Positions 54,300 through 61,772 of a stretch of DNA of 64,000 nucleotides are shown piece by piece. Below the pieces are notes generated by a model. It was not told where the DNA came from. It saw only the letters and a list, made by a program, of their open reading frames with translations, and searched no databases. The stretch covers positions 2,182,066 to 2,246,065 of the forward strand of contig OZ242017.1 in NCBI GenBank assembly GCA_965204835.1, written 5' to 3'. Source of the DNA: Dehalococcoidia bacterium. Its GTDB lineage: Bacteria; Chloroflexota; Dehalococcoidia; UBA2979. The first letter of the stretch is position 1. Every line of letters begins with the position of its first letter. The translations under genes were made by a program, and so were the position numbers.

Positions 54300-54354
54300 C
54301 CGCCGGGCTACCGTGTCCCGTTCCACTTGAAGTGCGTCAAGCTAGGACTTAACA

Positions 54355-54723
54355 TTGCCGTTGAGGCTCTTCCATGAGGGCGCGCGGTTCTCGTTGTTGC
54401 TCTACGAACGGAGCGGTGGGGACAGCCCGTTCACCGAGTTTCTACGAGGGCTGACCCGCAAGGATCGAGCGCGGCTCACGGGACTCCTCGAGCGGGTGGC
54501 GGATCACGGTCCGCTATACAGTCCGGAGCGATCCGTCCCGCTCACCGGACAGGACTTCCTGGAGTTCAAGTCCGGGCAGCAGCGGATATTCTGGTGCTAT
54601 GCCCCGGGCAGGCGGATCGTGCTGATGCATGGCTTCACGAAGAAGTCGAATCAGACACCGCGGAGGGAACTACGCACCGGAGCGCGGCTCCGCGAGGAAG
54701 TCCGGGACGAGATAGGCGAGTGA
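54355..54723 (+). CDS. type II toxin, RelE/ParE superfamily (HigB/Gp49-like)
   Basis: …ERSGGDSPFTEFLRGL… matches the Gp49/HigB-like N-terminal motif. The only available in-frame start is TTG 54355 with a TAGGA RBS. Followed by an XRE antitoxin. Confidence 0.7.
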   Translation: MPLRLFHEGARFSLLLYERSGGDSPFTEFLRGLTRKDRARLTGLLERVADHGPLYSPERSVPLTGQDFLEFKSGQQRIFWCYAPGRRIVLMHGFTKKSNQTPRRELRTGARLREEVRDEIGE

Positions 54724-54733
54724 CGAGGCACCC

Positions 54734-55069
54734 ATGGTGAAGCTGCAGGACTGGATCGACGAGTTCCAGGGCGATCCCGACTACGAGTTCACGAAGGTCG
54801 CCATCGACATCGGCGAGCAGATCGTGGCGCGCATGGAGGAGCGAGGGATGACGCAGGCCGACCTCGCGCGGGCCATGGGCGTCAGCCGGGCGCGCGTGAG
54901 CCAGATCCTGCGAGGCAACGACAACCTCACGCTTAAGAGCATCGTCGCCGTCGCCATCGCCCTCGACTGCCGCGTCGAGATGCTGCTGCAGCCCGTCCCG
55001 GCGACTGAACCGGACCAGCAGGCTCAGCCGTCGACCAAGGAGGCCCGGCCGCTCGCCCGCGCAACGTAG
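54734..55069 (+). CDS. HigA-like antitoxin, XRE-family HTH
   Basis: HTH MTQADLARAMGVSRARVSQILRG. Immediately downstream of the toxin gene. Confidence 0.8.
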   Translation: MVKLQDWIDEFQGDPDYEFTKVAIDIGEQIVARMEERGMTQADLARAMGVSRARVSQILRGNDNLTLKSIVAVAIALDCRVEMLLQPVPATEPDQQAQPSTKEARPLARAT

Positions 55070-55084
55070 GCCGACGCCGCTCCC

Positions 55085-55468
55085 CTATGCCGCCGCGCCC
55101 AGCGCGCGGGCGACTTCCCCGATGTCCCGAGGGAGCACCGACACGCCGGGCTTGATCAGCGCCTCCGGGAAGCGCGACACCTCCGGCGCCAGCCGCACCG
55201 CAATGACTCGTTTGCCGAGCTGCCGGCTCTTGCGTATCTCCCAGTTCACCGAGTCGCTGCGCCACGTCGTCTTGCCCACAAGGCAGACCGTGGCCGAGCA
55301 CGAGCGGATCAGCTCCTCGACGTTCATGCGCCGTGCTCGCTCGAACGGTTCCCGCACCGAGTAGTCGCGGAACTCGAGGCCCGCGTGCTCGGTCTCGGCC
55401 TGCCGGCGGATGGCGTCGGCCAGCCACTGGTCCTCGGCCGCGAAGCTGAGGAAGACGGTCTGGGTCAT
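55085..55468 (-). CDS. TIR-like domain protein (DUF1863/MTH538-type, ThsB-like)
   Basis: ATG 55468 after a GGTGGGGGA RBS. MTQTVFLSFAAEDQWLADAI…SATVCLVGKTTWRSDSVNWEIRKSRQLGKRVIAV matches the DUF1863 TIR-like pattern. 127 aa, GC about 65%. Confidence 0.65.
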   Translation of the reverse strand: MTQTVFLSFAAEDQWLADAIRRQAETEHAGLEFRDYSVREPFERARRMNVEELIRSCSATVCLVGKTTWRSDSVNWEIRKSRQLGKRVIAVRLAPEVSRFPEALIKPGVSVLPRDIGEVARALGAAA

Positions 55469-55577
55469 CGATGGTCCCCCCACCAACCCCGCCGCGCCCG
55501 AGTATAGCGCGGCTGCGAACGCGCGTTCTACCCCTGCGCCACCCCCACCCCCGCGGCCTTCGACGTACCATCCCCCC

Positions 55578-56660
55578 ATGCGCCGCCTCGACCCCCGCCG
55601 GCTCGCCCCTGGACGCATCGACGCGTGGACGGTCCCGCACCGGCTGCGCTTCCTTGCGCGCGTCGTGGCGCTGCTGCTGGTGCTCGCCGCGCTGCCGGCA
55701 GCCCACGACTGGCTGCGCGCCACCGCCTTCACTGCCGACGTCGTGTTCCGGCTCCCCGGCCGCCCCATCACGTGGTTCACCGGCGACCCCTCGACGCACA
55801 CGCTCGACTACGCCGAGAGCGGCCGCGGGGTGCTCACGCTCCCCGCCGGCGACGGCGCGGTCCCCGGCCTCATCGTCGCGCTCGGCGCAGACCCCGCCGA
55901 GGCCGACGACGAGCGCGTCGTGCGCTTCACCGAGGGCCTCGCGCGCATCGGCTTCGCCGTGCTGCTCACGCAGTCCGATGAGCTCGACGCGGCCGTCGTC
56001 CAGCCCGTCGAGATCGGTCGCCTCACCGCGGCGTTCGAGGCGCTCGCGACCCACCCACGCGTGCGAGCAGACCGGGTCGGGTACGTCGGGCTCTCCGCCG
56101 GCGGGTCGCTGACGATCGTCGCGGCCTCACAGCCGGAGGTCGCCGGCGACGTCGCGTTCGTCGTCGCGATCGGGCCGTACTACGACGCGGCGAGCCTCGC
56201 GGCCTCGGTGCTCTCGCAAAGCTTCCGCGGCCCCGACGGCGTCGAGGCGTGGGATCCCGCCCGCATCTCCGAGCGCGCCGTCCTCAACACCCTCCTCGCC
56301 GCGCTCGACGAGCCGGGGCGCGCGGCCTTCGACGCGCTCGGTGAAGGGCCGACGATATACCAGGCGGAGGCGTTCCTCGCGGGGCTTGGAGCGGCGCCGC
56401 GCGCCAACCTCGATGGCATCAGCCCGAGCAGCCACATCGAGGGGCTGCGCGCGCCGCTGTACCTGCTCCACGACCGCGCCGACGCGTTCGTGCCGTGGGT
56501 CGAGTCCGAGGCGCTGGCCGCCGTCCACGAGCCCGCGCTCTATCACCGCCTCGACCTCTTCGACCACGTCGAGCCGGACCCCGGCAACCTGCGGCACGCG
56601 GCGCGCGACGGATGGCGGATACTGCGCCTGCTGGCGCACATCCTCGGCGAGTACGCGTGA
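55578..56660 (+). CDS. alpha/beta-hydrolase (Ser-Asp-His) with N-terminal TM anchor
   Basis: GLSAGG nucleophile elbow, plus downstream Asp (LHDRAD) and His (LFDHVEP). N-terminal hydrophobic helix. The upstream ORF extension is artifact. Confidence 0.7.
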   Translation: MRRLDPRRLAPGRIDAWTVPHRLRFLARVVALLLVLAALPAAHDWLRATAFTADVVFRLPGRPITWFTGDPSTHTLDYAESGRGVLTLPAGDGAVPGLIVALGADPAEADDERVVRFTEGLARIGFAVLLTQSDELDAAVVQPVEIGRLTAAFEALATHPRVRADRVGYVGLSAGGSLTIVAASQPEVAGDVAFVVAIGPYYDAASLAASVLSQSFRGPDGVEAWDPARISERAVLNTLLAALDEPGRAAFDALGEGPTIYQAEAFLAGLGAAPRANLDGISPSSHIEGLRAPLYLLHDRADAFVPWVESEALAAVHEPALYHRLDLFDHVEPDPGNLRHAARDGWRILRLLAHILGEYA

Positions 56661-56980
56661 GTGGTACGGTCGGCCGCATGGACGCTCCGACGCCGCCCGT
56701 GCTGCTGCTGACCTCGTGGCACCTGCCGCGCATGCGGTCGATGCCGCGCGCCTTCTGGCTCGCGCGCCGCCTCGACCGCGACGGCCGCGCCGCGCCGGGC
56801 TGCATCCGCATGCATCGATGGGTCTCACGCCGCTCGGTGCTGCTGACGAGCTGGTGGGAGTCGCGCGAGGCGGCCGCGGCATGGCGCGCCACCCCCACGT
56901 TCCGCGAACTCGACGGGCGGCTACGAGCCATCCCCGGCGCGGAGCCGCGGGTCGAGCTGCGCGGCGGCGAGGATGCCTGA
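56657..56980 (+). CDS. hypothetical protein (DUF3291-like)
   Basis: …SWHLPRMRSMPRAFWLARRL…RMHRWVSRRSVLLTSWWESREAAAAW… GTG overlaps the preceding stop. An alternative start is ATG 56678. Confidence 0.4.
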   Translation: MSGTVGRMDAPTPPVLLLTSWHLPRMRSMPRAFWLARRLDRDGRAAPGCIRMHRWVSRRSVLLTSWWESREAAAAWRATPTFRELDGRLRAIPGAEPRVELRGGEDA

Positions 56981-57151
56981 GGCTGGGCATGGGAGCGCCC
57001 CGTCGGCAGCATGGCTCTAGAACATCAGGTCTTATACGATTAGCAACACAGCCGCCGAGGGCGTGGTTCGCGGACTGCGTGCAACTCGACGAAGGGAAGA
57101 GGCACACAGGAAGCGCTGGTAGCGAAGCTACAAGCGGGGAGGGATACGAAC

Positions 57152-57361
57152 ATGAGCGACACACCATATGTGATCTACGAGGTCTCCTGCATCGAAGGAT
57201 TCTGCCGCTGGGAGCAACGGACAGGCCTGCGGAAGGGTACATTCCTGACCGCAGCGCGGCTCGGCTGGGAACACAGGGCGAAGACCGGCCATAAGGTCGT
57301 GGCCGTGCTGCCCCGCGAACGTGGCGCGGGCGATCATGCGCGGCCCGGTGCCAGACCCTAG
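57152..57361 (+). CDS. small hypothetical protein (69 aa)
   Basis: ATG 57152 after a GGGAGGG RBS. Region GC about 60%. The 3' end overlaps the convergent pncB by 4 nt. Confidence 0.35.
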   Translation: MSDTPYVIYEVSCIEGFCRWEQRTGLRKGTFLTAARLGWEHRAKTGHKVVAVLPRERGAGDHARPGARP

Positions 57362-58722
57362 GGTTCCCACGCCCGCCCGAGCCGCGCGGCGTCCGCGCGC
57401 AGCGCGTCGCTGACCACCACTTCGTACGGCGGCGAGGCGGCGTCGAGCGCTCGCAGGCGCTCCGGCAGGCGCGCGATCTCCGAGGCGGCCCGCTCGCGCG
57501 CGGCCGACAGCGACGCCTCGCCCGCAGGCAGGCGCTCCCCGTCGCGCATCACCTGCACGAGCAGCGGCTCGCCCTCGTGGCGCTCGTCCGCGCGGGCGAG
57601 GATGTCGCGCGTCGCGACGCCCGAGGCGTCGCGCTGGCGGAAGACCTGCTTGCGACCCGGCAGCGTGGCCTTGCCCGGCGAGTGCTTGATCCGCCCCTCG
57701 CCGTCGTACGCGGCGAGCTTGTAGACCGCGTCGAACGTCGGCGCGTCCGAGGAGGTCACGGCGCGCGTCCCGACCCCGAAGGCGTCGATGGGAGCGCCCG
57801 ACGCGACGAGTTCCGCCACGCTGTACTCGTCGAGGCCCCCGCTCGCGATGATGCGCACCGACGTGAGCCCGGCCGCGTCGAGGATGCGCCGCGCCTCAAC
57901 CGCGAGGTCGCCGAGGGGCTCAGAGTCGAGGCGGATGTTGCGCACGCGGAACGCGTCGCCCAGCTCCCAGGCGAGGCGGACCACCGTGCGCACGCCGTCG
58001 AGGGTGTCGAAGGTGTCAACGAGCAGCGTGGTCTCGGGGTGGGTGGCGACGAAGTCGCGGAACGCGGCATGGTCCTCGCCGTGGGCCTGCACGTAGCTGT
58101 GGGCCATGGTGCCGGTCACGGGGATGCCGTAGCGCGCGCCTGCCGCGACGTTCGAGGTCGACGCCATGCCGGCGAGGTAGAGCGCGCGGGCCGCGGTGAG
58201 CCCGGCGTCGGTGCCGTGGGCGCGCCGACCGCCGAAGTCGGCGACGGGCCGCCCGGCTGCGGCAGTCACCACGCGCGCGCCCTTCGAGGCGACGAGCGTC
58301 TGGAAGTGCACCTGGTTGATGAGGTACGTCTCCACGATCTGCGCCTCCGGCAGCGGCCCCTCGACGGTCAGCAGCGGCTCGTTCCCGAATGCGGGCGTGC
58401 CCTCCGGCATCGCCCACACGTCGCCCGTGAACCGCAGCTCCCCGAGCCAGTCGAGGAAGCCCGCCGGGAAGCCGACACGCTCCAGCGCCTCGAGCGACCC
58501 GGCCCCGAACTCGAGTCCTTCGAGGTACGCGAGCGCCGAGTCGAGTCCGCACGCCAGCAGGTAGTTGCGCCCCTCGGGCAGCGTCCGCGCGAACAGCTCG
58601 AACGTGGCGGGCGCGCGCATGTCGTGCTGCCAGTACGACTGGAGCATCGTCAGCTCGTAGAGGTCGGTGAACAGCGCGAGGTCGACGCCCGCGGCCGCCT
58701 CGCGGTCGTGCGGCGGGGTCAC
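57358..58722 (-). CDS. pncB: nicotinate phosphoribosyltransferase
   Basis: 454 aa with NAPRTase-wide similarity (…LFTDLYELTMLQSYW…, …GTMAHSYVQAH…). Confidence 0.9.
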   Translation of the reverse strand: MTPPHDREAAAGVDLALFTDLYELTMLQSYWQHDMRAPATFELFARTLPEGRNYLLACGLDSALAYLEGLEFGAGSLEALERVGFPAGFLDWLGELRFTGDVWAMPEGTPAFGNEPLLTVEGPLPEAQIVETYLINQVHFQTLVASKGARVVTAAAGRPVADFGGRRAHGTDAGLTAARALYLAGMASTSNVAAGARYGIPVTGTMAHSYVQAHGEDHAAFRDFVATHPETTLLVDTFDTLDGVRTVVRLAWELGDAFRVRNIRLDSEPLGDLAVEARRILDAAGLTSVRIIASGGLDEYSVAELVASGAPIDAFGVGTRAVTSSDAPTFDAVYKLAAYDGEGRIKHSPGKATLPGRKQVFRQRDASGVATRDILARADERHEGEPLLVQVMRDGERLPAGEASLSAARERAASEIARLPERLRALDAASPPYEVVVSDALRADAARLGRAWEP

Positions 58723-60008: not shown

Positions 60009-60063
60009 GCCGCCAGCCTACCCCGCACCGTGGTCAGGCGCGCTGCCCCCAAAGGGAACGGTC

Positions 60064-60369
60064 TCAATCGCCCGCGAGGCCGGCCGTGCCCGCGGCCTGC
60101 AGACGGAGGCCCAGCGCGCGCATGACCTTGAGGATTGTCCCGAACTCCGGATTGCCATCGGCGGACAGGGATCGATACAGGCTCTCCCGGGCCAACCCTG
60201 CCTGGCGGGCCACGCTCGTCATTCGCCGGGCACGGGCGATGTCCCCGAGTACCGCGAGAATGAGGGATAGATCACCGTCCTCAAGGGCGGCGTTCAGGTA
60301 CGCGACCATGTCCTCCTCGGTCTTGAGGTGCTCGGCCGGATCCCATGGCCTGGTCTGTGTCTCAGCCAT
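60064..60369 (-). CDS. addiction-module antidote protein, HigA family (HTH)
   Basis: …LSLILAVLGDIARARRMTSVARQAGLARESLYRSL… typical TIGR02684-like antidote. Downstream of a RelE-family toxin. Confidence 0.8.
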   Translation of the reverse strand: MAETQTRPWDPAEHLKTEEDMVAYLNAALEDGDLSLILAVLGDIARARRMTSVARQAGLARESLYRSLSADGNPEFGTILKVMRALGLRLQAAGTAGLAGD

Positions 60370-60383
60370 GCGCGTACTGCCTC

Positions 60384-60674
60384 CTACAGCCCCCGAGCTA
60401 ATTCCAATGCTCTTCGTACGTCGCGGGGCTGGCTGTCCTTGTCTCCGCCAGCCAGGAGCACGACGACCGCCTCGCCACGCTGGAGGTAGTACACACGGTA
60501 CCCCGGTCCGTAATCGATGCGGAGTTCAGAGACTCCGCCGCCGATCGGCCTGACGTCGCCGGGATTACCCAGTGAGAGCCGCCGGATGCGTGTGTCGATC
60601 CGCGCCTTCGCGTTCCGATCCCGGAGCCGCCTGAACCAGCGAGCGTAAACCTCCGTCTGCCGTATCTCGATCAC
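60384..60674 (-). CDS. type II toxin, RelE/ParE family (addiction-module killer protein)
   Basis: …RIRRLSLGNPGDVRPIGGGVSELRIDYGPGYRVYY… GTG start 60674. Confidence 0.85.
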   Translation of the reverse strand: MIEIRQTEVYARWFRRLRDRNAKARIDTRIRRLSLGNPGDVRPIGGGVSELRIDYGPGYRVYYLQRGEAVVVLLAGGDKDSQPRDVRRALELARGL

Positions 60675-60682
60675 GAACGAGT

Positions 60683-60700
60683 GTAACTCATGGGTTACAT
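60683..60700. promoter_or_regulatory. palindromic candidate operator TGTAAC-tcatgg-GTTACA upstream of the RelE/HigA module
   Basis: Perfect 6-bp inverted arms 9 nt upstream of the toxin GTG. TA operons are typically autoregulated at such dyads. Confidence 0.45.
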
Positions 60701-60740
60701 CATGGCTACGAGGAAAGCGGCGCAGCGTGACAACACCGAC

Positions 60741-61772
60741 CTAATACCCTCGCGCCGGGTCGTACACGTTGTGGAGCGGCTCGCCGCGCAGGTAGCGGGC
60801 GAGGTTGTCGCAGAACATCTCCGTCGCGCGCGCGGCGTAGTCCTCCGGGCCGCCGGTCAGGTGCGGCGTCAGCAACACGTTGTCGAGCTCCCACAGCGGG
60901 CTCTCCGGCGGCAGCGGCTCGCGGTGGAACACGTCGAGGGCCGCGCCGCCGATGACGCCCTTGCGCAGCGCCTCGATGAGCGCCTGCTCCTCCACCAGCT
61001 CGCCACGCGCGATGTTCAGCAGGTACGACCGAGGTCCCATTGTGCGCAGCTGCTCGGCGCCGATCATCTCGCGCGTCTCCTCGGTCAGCGGCGCAGCCAG
61101 CACGACGAAGTCGCTCTCGGCCAGCAGGTAGTCGAGGTCGCCCGGCGGGATCGCCTCGTCGGCTACGTCGTCGGGGCCGCGCGTCGTGAACGAGCGGCGC
61201 ATCCCCAGCACGCGGCAGCCGAGGGCGCGTGCGCGCGTGGCGACGGCCGCGCCGATCGCGCCCATGCCGATGATGCCGACCGTCTTGCCCTCGAGGTCCT
61301 CGGGGATGACCGAGCGGTCGTAGGCGCCGGCGATCTGGTTGCGCAGCAGCGCGGGCCAGCCCTTGGCGAACATCAGCATGTAGGTCAGCACGAACTCGGA
61401 GATCGGCACGGCGTGCATGCCGGTCACCGTCGTGACCGTCAGGCCGCAGTCATGGACCAGCGCCGGGTCGACGCGCTCCGCGCCCGCCGTGAAGAGCTGC
61501 ACCCAGCGCAGCGTGGGCGGGAACGCGTCGGGGCGCACGAGCTGTTCCAGCGCGTCGCCCCAGAAGGCAAACAGCACCTCGGAGTCCCCGAGCGCGGCCG
61601 CGATCTCCTCGTGCGGGGTCGCAGCCTGGCGCTGGCTCGGGAACCGGCCCGCGCCCTGCAGGTCGGCGATGCCGGCGGGGTTAAGCACGCGCACGCGCAA
61701 CGAGGGGTCGACGGCGCGGATGCGGTCGGCGACCTCGGGTTCGAGGGCGAACGTGACCGTGACCTGCGTCAT
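60741..61772 (-). CDS. D-isomer-specific 2-hydroxyacid dehydrogenase (glyoxylate/hydroxypyruvate reductase-like)
   Basis: NAD motif GIIGMGAIGAAVA and catalytic R…E…H (…NIARGELVEE…, …LTPHLTG…). Confidence 0.9.
   Translation of the reverse strand: MTQVTVTFALEPEVADRIRAVDPSLRVRVLNPAGIADLQGAGRFPSQRQAATPHEEIAAALGDSEVLFAFWGDALEQLVRPDAFPPTLRWVQLFTAGAERVDPALVHDCGLTVTTVTGMHAVPISEFVLTYMLMFAKGWPALLRNQIAGAYDRSVIPEDLEGKTVGIIGMGAIGAAVATRARALGCRVLGMRRSFTTRGPDDVADEAIPPGDLDYLLAESDFVVLAAPLTEETREMIGAEQLRTMGPRSYLLNIARGELVEEQALIEALRKGVIGGAALDVFHREPLPPESPLWELDNVLLTPHLTGGPEDYAARATEMFCDNLARYLRGEPLHNVYDPARGY

Follow-up and report, generated by a model that had tools for sequence, protein, structure and literature searches.

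A maintained ThsB-type TIR gene with no effector in cis in Dehalococcoidia, and the pairing of its family with the 8xMP membrane protein

Introduction

With which genes does a small, stand-alone TIR gene of a Dehalococcoidia genome belong? The question arises from a 64-kb stretch of DNA (the window) with a GC content of about 72%, whose closest relatives are metagenome-assembled Dehalococcoidia (Chloroflexota). A preliminary description had pointed to a 127-aa minus-strand ORF with a TIR-like DUF1863/ThsB pattern in this stretch, lying beside a toxin-antitoxin module and about 2 kb from the NAD salvage genes pncB and pncA. Nicotinamide is the product of TIR NADases. The TIR gene, a membrane-anchored hydrolase gene, two small ORFs and pncB-pncA were read as one small islet of defense or NAD homeostasis, in which pncAB would recycle the nicotinamide released by the TIR protein, and whose composition was not recognized as that of a named system.

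Yirmiya et al. (2025) list 29 putative Thoeris types, of which eleven are verified, and place a '3TM' class outside the verified ones. They also describe Thoeris signalling and membrane effectors, and caution that the TIRs of unverified types could be NAD+-depleting effectors (bioRxiv 10.64898/2025.12.03.692087). Here we analyze the TIR gene of the window, which we call TIRa, together with its neighbours, its family and its closest relatives.

Results

TIRa encodes a single-domain protein of ThsB type

TIRa occupies positions 55085 to 55468 of the minus strand. The ORF is intact, with an ATG start codon at 55468 and a TAG stop codon at 55085-55087, and encodes a single-domain protein of 127 aa. 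A 238-aa reading of the same ORF, initiated at a GTG codon, was rejected as spurious because more than 80 homologues of TIRa are 127 to 128 aa long and start with M-x-x-x-V-F-L-S-F. The protein matches the Pfam profile ThsB_TIR (PF08937, formerly DUF1863) with an E-value of 3.6e-15 and 56.6 bits, the cut-off being 21.2, and it also passes the cut-off of TIR_2 (PF13676; 29.7 bits, cut-off 28). The ThsB models of PADLOC match with E-values down to 5e-11. These scores bear out the pattern recognized initially, and the assignment of TIRa as a TIR protein is far above chance level. TIRa also matches the PADLOC candidate PDC-M50B, which was set aside, the neighbouring genes having no match to any PDC-M50 partner. 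Among its relatives, TIRa is 96% identical to the copies in loci L010 and L011 and 76-82% identical to those in several others. No relatives turned up when viral contigs were scanned with the same family's TIR alignment.

To place the family among known structures, a profile of 51 family members (alignment A2) was compared with the PDB. The matches included BcTir (8fz9, E-value 2e-15), Bacillus cereus ThsB (6lhy/9b7d, E-value 5e-8) and EcThsB (8wcf). The AlphaFold2 (AF2) model of TIRa has a pLDDT of 82.7 and shows the alternating beta-alpha pattern of the flavodoxin-like TIR fold. Its best Foldseek matches are 8fz9, EcThsB (8wcf), BcThsB (9b7d), the TIR domain of SPARTA and the TIR domain of MyD88. 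In an HMM alignment, Glu77 of TIRa (codon GAG, 55238-55240, minus strand), which lies within a W-E-I motif, occupies the same column as Glu85 of B. cereus ThsB (6lhy/9b7d). We take Glu85, after Ofir et al. 2021, to be the catalytic glutamate of that protein. Glu77 is invariant in the 51-sequence alignment, as well as in a set of 54 sequences made up of 11 TIRa and 43 canonical family members, and is predicted to be the catalytic residue. Fold and glutamate thus both come out as the first reading of the ORF would lead one to expect, and the best explanation for the sequence data is that TIRa is a ThsB-type TIR that is predicted to be catalytically competent.

The closest characterized proteins resemble TIRa in fold and differ from it in size and partner. 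ThsB of type I Thoeris from B. cereus MSX-D12 (6LHY, 9B7D) shares the PF08937 match and the TIR fold, and its Glu85 aligns with the W-E-I glutamate of TIRa. However, it measures about 190 aa, whereas TIRa has no C-terminal extension, and the two are only about 20% identical. BcTir of the BcTir/Tpr pair (8FZ9), the best PDB match (Foldseek E-value 1e-6, TM-score 0.70), is of similar size (138 aa) and is likewise a stand-alone TIR protein, encoded in a two-gene anti-phage operon. Its identity to TIRa is 25%, and its partner is a glycosidase-TPR protein.

The neighbours of TIRa form a core gene order around a variable slot

On the side of its stop codon, TIRa converges with a toxin-antitoxin module on the plus strand. 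More specifically, a gene for a HigB-like toxin (Gp49/DUF891; 54355-54723; PF05973, 50 bits) is followed after 10 bp on the same strand by one for a HigA-like HTH antitoxin (54734-55069; PF01381, 47.6 bits, and alignment with relatives), as had been described. The module is accessory and lies outside the TIR system, being found with or without TIR genes, and some relatives add a third, SecB-like gene as in toxin-antitoxin-chaperone (TAC) systems. A gap of 15 bp (55070-55084) separates the stop codons of HigA and TIRa. It is on this side that blastn and HMM maps place a second TIR gene and a membrane protein gene, TIRb and 8xMP, in the relatives L003/L013 and L015.

On its other side, TIRa is separated by a 109-bp intergenic region (55469-55577), the presumed promoter region, from a divergent gene for a membrane-anchored, alpha/beta-hydrolase-like protein of 360 aa (55578-56660, plus strand). 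The ATG start of this gene at 55578 was set from 360-aa homologues with 100% coverage. Its orientation and membrane anchor agree with the initial reading as a divergent Ser hydrolase, while the matches to alpha/beta-hydrolase profiles (DLH, BD-FAE and Peptidase_S9) are weak and stay below threshold. The next plus-strand ORF (56495-56980), first taken for a DUF3291-like protein, scores instead as an ABM-domain protein (PF03992, 31-33 bits). Its real start is probably near 56672-56678, which would give a protein of about 100-102 aa; its orthologues measure 102 aa. Pfam searches confirmed pncB (NAPRTase domains) and pncA (isochorismatase) at a distance of about 2 kb from TIRa. They also confirmed a second toxin-antitoxin module at 60064-60674, the RelE/HigA module of the preliminary description, which consists of a Gp49-type toxin and an HI1420-type antidote.

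The Pfam and PADLOC searches covered the ORFs from about 53.9 to 60.7 kb. No PADLOC effector was found among the ORFs at 54.3-60.7 kb, which for this segment agrees with the earlier statement that the window has no SIR2/Macro/SLOG partner of ThsA type, and no effector adjoins TIRa. With a convergent HigA gene on one side and the divergent hydrolase gene on the other, TIRa forms no operon with a signal-responsive effector of any Thoeris type. Furthermore, no sensor or receiver module (SAVED, pAgo/APAZ, STAND NTPase or cyclase operon) is fused or adjacent to it. A scan of 54.2-57.5 kb for sigma-70-like promoter and terminator consensus sequences found none; such a scan is uninformative for a Chloroflexota genome of 72% GC.

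The neighbouring genes had been described as lower in GC content than the flanks. This holds for HigBA (0.64-0.66), the region of a 69-aa ORF (0.67) and the second toxin-antitoxin module (0.62-0.67), whereas the TIR, hydrolase and ABM genes (0.71-0.75) are like the flanks. The 69-aa ORF lies inside a 380-bp insertion that is missing from the closest relatives.

The gene order in other Dehalococcoidia separates the permanent from the variable parts of this region. Two loci that have no TIR gene (L111 and L112) carry men genes, MaoC, DoxX, HigB, HigA, a 138-aa ORF, the hydrolase, ABM, pncB and pncA, in this order. Three further loci with neither a TIR gene nor pncAB nearby (L113-L115) carry DoxX, DSBA, other genes, the hydrolase and an LPG synthase gene, with ABM present in L115. 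The hydrolase family has a wide distribution across Dehalococcoidia, much wider than that of the TIR, and stays beside DoxX and the men genes. Because their order is kept without the TIR gene in these more distant Dehalococcoidia, the hydrolase, ABM and pncB-pncA represent core synteny; they are core genes of this Dehalococcoidia lineage. Between DoxX and the hydrolase lies a hot spot, in which HigBA, TIR modules or other genes reside. Of the segment from 55.0 to 57.4 kb, for which a variable insertion had been considered, the TIR gene sits in the variable, toxin-antitoxin-containing slot, and the hydrolase and ABM genes belong to the core order.

These observations bear directly on the NAD-salvage islet. 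The pncB and pncA genes are real, and their adjacency to TIRa is kept in the close relatives of the window. However, across 59 loci, pncAB lies within 8 kb of a family TIR only in the window's own lineage, and in the approximately 45 family loci outside it, pncAB, the hydrolase and ABM are all missing within that distance. In L006 and L007, a TIR gene with its 8xMP partner accompanies hydrolase-ABM, and pncAB is not nearby. The GC values and the distribution of the 380-bp insertion, given above, likewise argue against the islet. The islet is therefore very improbable as a functional unit, and the link of TIRa to NAD salvage is a coincidental neighbourhood.

A related possibility is that TIRa and the divergent hydrolase form a pair of TIR and effector, the latter of the hydrolase or lipase type. 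In this lineage, TIRa and the hydrolase gene are invariably direct neighbours in divergent orientation, with 109 bp between them, and hydrolases and phospholipases are among the predicted Thoeris effectors (bioRxiv 10.64898/2025.12.03.692087). Against such a pair stand the much wider distribution of the hydrolase, which keeps its position without the TIR gene, and the family TIRs outside the lineage, which never occur with it. The divergent orientation is moreover atypical of Thoeris operons, and the hydrolase has no PADLOC match. We consider this pairing highly unlikely.

The partner of the TIR family is a downstream 8xMP gene

The homologues of TIRa point to a different partner. In gene calls, homologues that are 47-64% identical to TIRa are followed immediately by a second gene, which overlaps the TIR gene or is separated from it by a few bases. 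The encoded protein, of 170-177 aa, matches PF24838, the 'Octameric membrane protein family (8xMP)', with 115-134 bits. HMMs were built for the TIR and 8xMP families, and every locus was scanned in six frames. The TIR alignment recovered 50 genome loci, and in 30 of them the TIR gene is directly followed by 8xMP. According to their record titles, these 30 loci come from Dehalococcoidia, Acidobacteriota, Rhodothermales, Binatia, Gemmatimonadota, SAR324 and Gammaproteobacteria. Altogether, 43 distinct TIR sequences have 8xMP at most 150 bp downstream. A reverse search with the 8xMP alignment yielded 47 metagenome loci, and a ThsB_TIR ORF adjoins 8xMP in most of those that include upstream sequence. 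The overlapping downstream 8xMP gene is the real partner of the family. Whereas the region around TIRa had been thought to represent an unnamed system of its own, the conserved partner of its family is thus a gene that is absent here.

Distant 8xMP genes lie in defense contexts. In L060, 8xMP follows the TIR gene within a BREX/PglZ island, and in L008 it sits beside HEPN and MmeI genes. L061 has a cluster of SEFIR/TIR-PASTA, caspase, 8xMP and caspase genes. On plasmid pH8NP2 of the cultured Polaromonas sp. H8N, the TIR-8xMP module is flanked by the R subunit gene of a type I restriction system on one side and by PIN and integrase genes on the other.

In the predicted structure of 8xMP, a long helical hairpin is joined by a helix at the C-terminus, and together these correspond to three membrane-length hydrophobic segments. 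The protein has no match in PADLOC v2, no solved structural relative was found, and it shows neither profile similarity to SLATT nor a Macro or DUF2270 domain. Its putative role as an effector is proposed from genomic context. We found nothing relevant on PF24838/8xMP in the literature and, as far as the latter is searchable, no experiments on any member of the TIR-8xMP family.

The module is not intact everywhere. The 8xMP gene is split or truncated in four loci (L006, L022, L025 and L034), and the TIR gene is frameshifted in L051. Downstream of other solitary family TIRs, the genes are heterogeneous, encoding for example a PD-(D/E)XK nuclease (L038), DUF2513 (L028) or DUF4238 (L043), and no second recurrent partner was found among them.

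TIRa is an orphaned paralogue under purifying selection

The TIR and 8xMP HMMs were run against all frames of the window. TIRa scores 197 bits with the family HMM, and the 8xMP HMM has no match anywhere in the 64 kb. The window's gene belongs to a subclade of 11 distinct sequences, all at least 76% identical, to which we extend the name TIRa. Downstream of TIRa in L003/L013, L015, L065 and L066 lie TIRb and 8xMP, both oriented like TIRa, TIRb being a canonical TIR that is about 64% identical to TIRa. In L010, TIRa is followed by TIRb, and the contig ends within the TIRb gene. In the window and in L001, L002, L011, L012 and L014, TIRa is solitary, and the HigB(Gp49)-HigA module occupies that slot. 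The blastn collinearity of the window with L003, L013 and L015 breaks at 54303/55089. More distant Dehalococcoidia (L006, L007 and L018) carry a single canonical TIR-8xMP module at the same chromosomal site.

In a neighbour-joining tree calculated without support values, the TIRa sequences are monophyletic and sit on a long branch that nests within the Dehalococcoidia members of the family. In the same tree, solitary and coupled copies are interleaved in four sister groupings, and the losses of TIRb-8xMP therefore seem to have been repeated. The simplest reading of these sequence relationships is that the sensor TIR was duplicated and that TIRb-8xMP was then lost several times.

The absence of the canonical partner raises the possibility that TIRa is a non-functional remnant of an effector deletion, on its way to decay as in the split, truncated or frameshifted modules described above. 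The coding sequences argue otherwise. TIRa is intact in 9 of the 9 orthologues examined, and pairwise dN/dS values among them range from 0.06 to 0.38 (mean 0.22), with dS up to 0.84. Pairs of two solitary copies (dS 0.25-0.84) fall in the same dN/dS range, as does canonical TIRb. Furthermore, a comparison of the 11 TIRa sequences with the 43 distinct 8xMP-linked TIRs found all core and catalytic positions of TIRa to be invariant. TIRa is under purifying selection, i.e., it is maintained, and its reading as a decaying remnant is improbable. As a whole, TIRa represents an orphaned yet maintained ThsB-type TIR whose effector is absent in cis.

The same comparison revealed four fixed changes in TIRa at positions that are strongly conserved in the canonical proteins, namely W46R, K47R, E106K and W114R. 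Among the 43 distinct 8xMP-linked TIRs, W46 is conserved in 100% and W114 in 86%. None of the recovered 8xMP clusters lies on contigs of the lengths of the chromosome-sized L001 and L002 contigs, which by this indirect argument probably carry no 8xMP at all.

Relationship to Thoeris types and other TIR systems

The TIR-8xMP pairing was compared with the known Thoeris types and with other TIR-based systems. Three '3TM'-associated TIR sequences of Yirmiya et al. match ORFs directly upstream of 8xMP in L016, L096, L100, L104 and L106 (E-values 1e-30 to 1e-44). L020 has a sixth match, at a distance of about 1.2 kb from the downstream 8xMP gene of that locus. Due to the position of these matches just upstream of 8xMP, we infer that '3TM' corresponds to PF24838, an equation that the paper itself does not make. 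The TIR-8xMP pairing is therefore probably the putative '3TM' Thoeris type. Both combine a TIR with a small three-TM protein, the 8xMP model having three TM-length helices. In contrast, these '3TM' TIRs belong to another TIR clade, with 27.8 bits against the window-family HMM, and the window has no membrane gene of this kind. Motifs of the window family were not found in the part of Table S1 of Yirmiya et al. that was searched.

Among the characterized TIRs, those scoring best with the window-family HMM are a type IV Thoeris TIR from Pseudomonas (57.6 bits) and TIRs of the SLATT-linked type VII (52-55 bits). In addition, a 40%-identical TIR on the Agrobacterium plasmid pTiCFBP4996 adjoins a SLATT_3/SLATT_1 protein. 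Together, these matches place TIRa in the sequence space of signal-producing ThsB proteins that work with membrane effectors. Type VII Thoeris (TIR and SLATT, with a cADPR signal) and types II and V (TIR and TM effectors) share with the TIR-8xMP module a small ThsB-type TIR and an oligomerizing membrane effector, the latter being predicted for 8xMP, which differs from their effectors in the features listed above. Type I Thoeris is more distant in its organization, as no SIR2-SLOG ThsA adjoins TIRa and the partner of its family is a membrane protein rather than an NADase. The TIRa-TIRb-8xMP arrangement is like that of Thoeris loci with several ThsB genes. TIR NADases of the effector type, known from CBASS, Pycsar, SPARTA and AVAST, differ from the single-domain TIRa, whose neighbours are HigBA and the hydrolase.

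Discussion

The explanation that we favour, with a probability of roughly 0.6, is that TIRa serves a TIR-8xMP system as an additional sensor and signal synthase, maintained and uncoupled from any effector in cis. The canonical module is a two-gene operon in which the TIR gene comes first, followed by the gene for a membrane protein of about 175 aa with three predicted TM helices. By analogy with the verified Thoeris types that have membrane effectors (II, V and VII), the TIR protein would sense phage infection, and its conserved glutamate would convert NAD+ into an ADP-ribose-derived signal. This signal may activate an oligomeric 8xMP, leading to membrane damage and abortive infection. The cleavage of NAD+, the production of a signal, the effector function of 8xMP, the role in defense and the role of TIRa on its own are all proposed here. 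Within Dehalococcoidia, the TIR gene would have been duplicated, the window's copy belonging to the diverged paralogue clade TIRa. TIRa would stand alone here after the loss of TIRb-8xMP, with HigB-HigA now on that side.

The main rival explanation starts from the persistence of TIRa by itself. Neofunctionalization could have turned TIRa into a self-contained, NAD+-depleting TIR of abortive infection, or into a signal producer for a target other than 8xMP. Of the 11 distinct TIRa sequences and contexts, 6 are solitary, and TIRa is nevertheless under purifying selection, having been kept while TIRb-8xMP was repeatedly lost, also in L001 and L002 with their apparent lack of 8xMP. The clade-specific substitutions leave the catalytic motif untouched, and stand-alone and effector TIRs are known (bioRxiv 10.64898/2025.12.03.692087). 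However, a protein of 127 aa with neither a sensor or regulatory domain nor a cognate partner would leave the control of a lethal NADase unexplained. Furthermore, TIRb-8xMP immediately follows TIRa on the same strand in five contexts, which suggests co-operation with the canonical module. We regard neofunctionalization in this form as a tentative possibility that is unlikely on the present evidence.

A more specific version ties this change to the duplication itself. TIRa may have newly evolved into an effector-independent TIR after the duplication, with two conserved surface tryptophans replaced by arginine, and may work alone as an immune NADase or signal synthase, or may target NAD-derived signals as a regulator or decoy. 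The substitutions W46R and W114R and the retention of TIRa in genomes that probably have no 8xMP suit an effector-independent role better than that of an accessory sensor. We nonetheless hold this version to be doubtful. If true, it would explain why TIRa is retained under selection while symbiont-like Dehalococcoidia repeatedly drop the membrane effector.

For the locus itself, the picture of a TIR coupled to NAD salvage is replaced by that of an accessory TIR in a hot spot between core genes. The TIRa finding is real but fairly ordinary, while the TIR-8xMP pairing and the recurrent retention of the TIR with no effector are somewhat more interesting. The link of PF24838 8xMP to TIR genes is consistent across seven or more bacterial lineages and extends to a plasmid from a cultured Polaromonas. 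The TIR-8xMP module thereby provides a specific candidate, amenable to cloning, for a Thoeris-like type outside the verified set. The TIRa clade, in turn, offers a natural experiment, in which close genomes share this TIR but differ in whether a second TIR and a membrane effector accompany it. This contrast could reveal how a ThsB-type protein acts when its effector is missing.

Toxin-antitoxin genes and variable spots around TIRa

Beside TIRa, the ThsB-like TIR gene of the window, lies a HigB(Gp49)-HigA pair (54355-55069). In the Dehalococcoidia relatives L006 (8938-10107), L007 (8927-10095) and L111 (3862-4958), the ORF after HigB(Gp49)-HigA is 138-141 aa long and weakly resembles SecB (PF02556, E 3.5e-4). 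This arrangement is a TAC-like toxin-antitoxin-chaperone module. The SecB-like ORF is missing in the window and in the TIRa-carrying relatives L001 and L002, and the HigA proteins of these three also lack a segment of about 8 residues (ARPNRRDCR) close to the C-terminus. The missing ORF and the shortened HigA possibly reflect a loss of chaperone dependence.

A stretch of about 380 bp (56984-57364, GC 0.67) between the ABM and pncB genes of the window is a second small variable spot. It contains a 69-aa ORF (57152-57361), for which a family search returned no match. In L010 and L011, the closest relatives, the stretch is missing and ABM adjoins pncB directly. The same spot is occupied by a YccF-like 153-aa ORF in L001 and by two transposase genes in L002.

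A second toxin-antitoxin module (60043-60741), whose GC of 0.62 is the lowest in the region, comprises an HI1420-type antidote (60064-60369) and a Gp49-family toxin (60384-60674). At the corresponding site, metallophosphoesterase and 2-hydroxyacid dehydrogenase genes adjoin in L010 and L011, and an unrelated 297-aa ORF is found in L001 and L003. The module is an insertion specific to the window.

Variants and genomic settings of the TIR-8xMP pair, and a TIR-SLATT locus

In some metagenome loci (L082/L083, 3292-4498; L087-L089), a further gene, whose product of about 164-210 aa belongs to DUF7701 (PF24792), separates the genes for the TIR and its usual partner, the membrane protein 8xMP (PF24838). 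Another TIR gene lies downstream on the opposite strand, and TIR-DUF7701-8xMP may represent a three-gene variant.

A six-frame HMM scan revealed split or truncated 8xMP reading frames in L006 (8393-8895), L022 (8368-8574), L025 (8368-8857) and L034 (8368-8568), as well as a frameshifted TIR in L051 (8001-8376). The 8xMP gene call measures 133 aa in L006, compared with 171 aa in the near-identical L007. This suggests that the TIR-8xMP module is often inactivated, with assembly errors as a possible alternative source of the broken frames.

8xMP also occurs within larger conflict-system clusters. It lies between two caspase genes, the first (C14) preceded by a SEFIR/TIR_2-PASTA protein, in L061 (2618-6372); in a TIR-8xMP-TIR-TIR series followed by HEPN_LA2681 and MmeI in L008 (8001-11898); and behind an SLFN/AlbA_2-ATPase and a TIR, within a duplicated PglZ (BREX-like) region, in L060 (2701-5513).

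A cluster on the Agrobacterium leguminum Ti plasmid pTiCFBP4996 (NZ_CP120216.1, 12169-16747) encodes a large TIR protein, a hypothetical protein and a QueC-like 7-cyano-7-deazaguanine synthase, as well as a TIR, a SLATT_3/SLATT_1 protein and one more TIR; it adjoins a PIN gene. This cluster is a type VII-like Thoeris locus with several TIRs, and its QueC-like gene is unusual.

On plasmid pH8NP2 of Polaromonas sp. H8N (NZ_MG869622.1, 28509-29449), a 183-aa PF24838 gene is overlapped by a 129-aa ThsB_TIR gene, and the pair is flanked by a type I restriction R subunit gene on one side and PIN and integrase genes on the other. This pair provides an example of TIR-8xMP from a cultured isolate, handy for experimental work.
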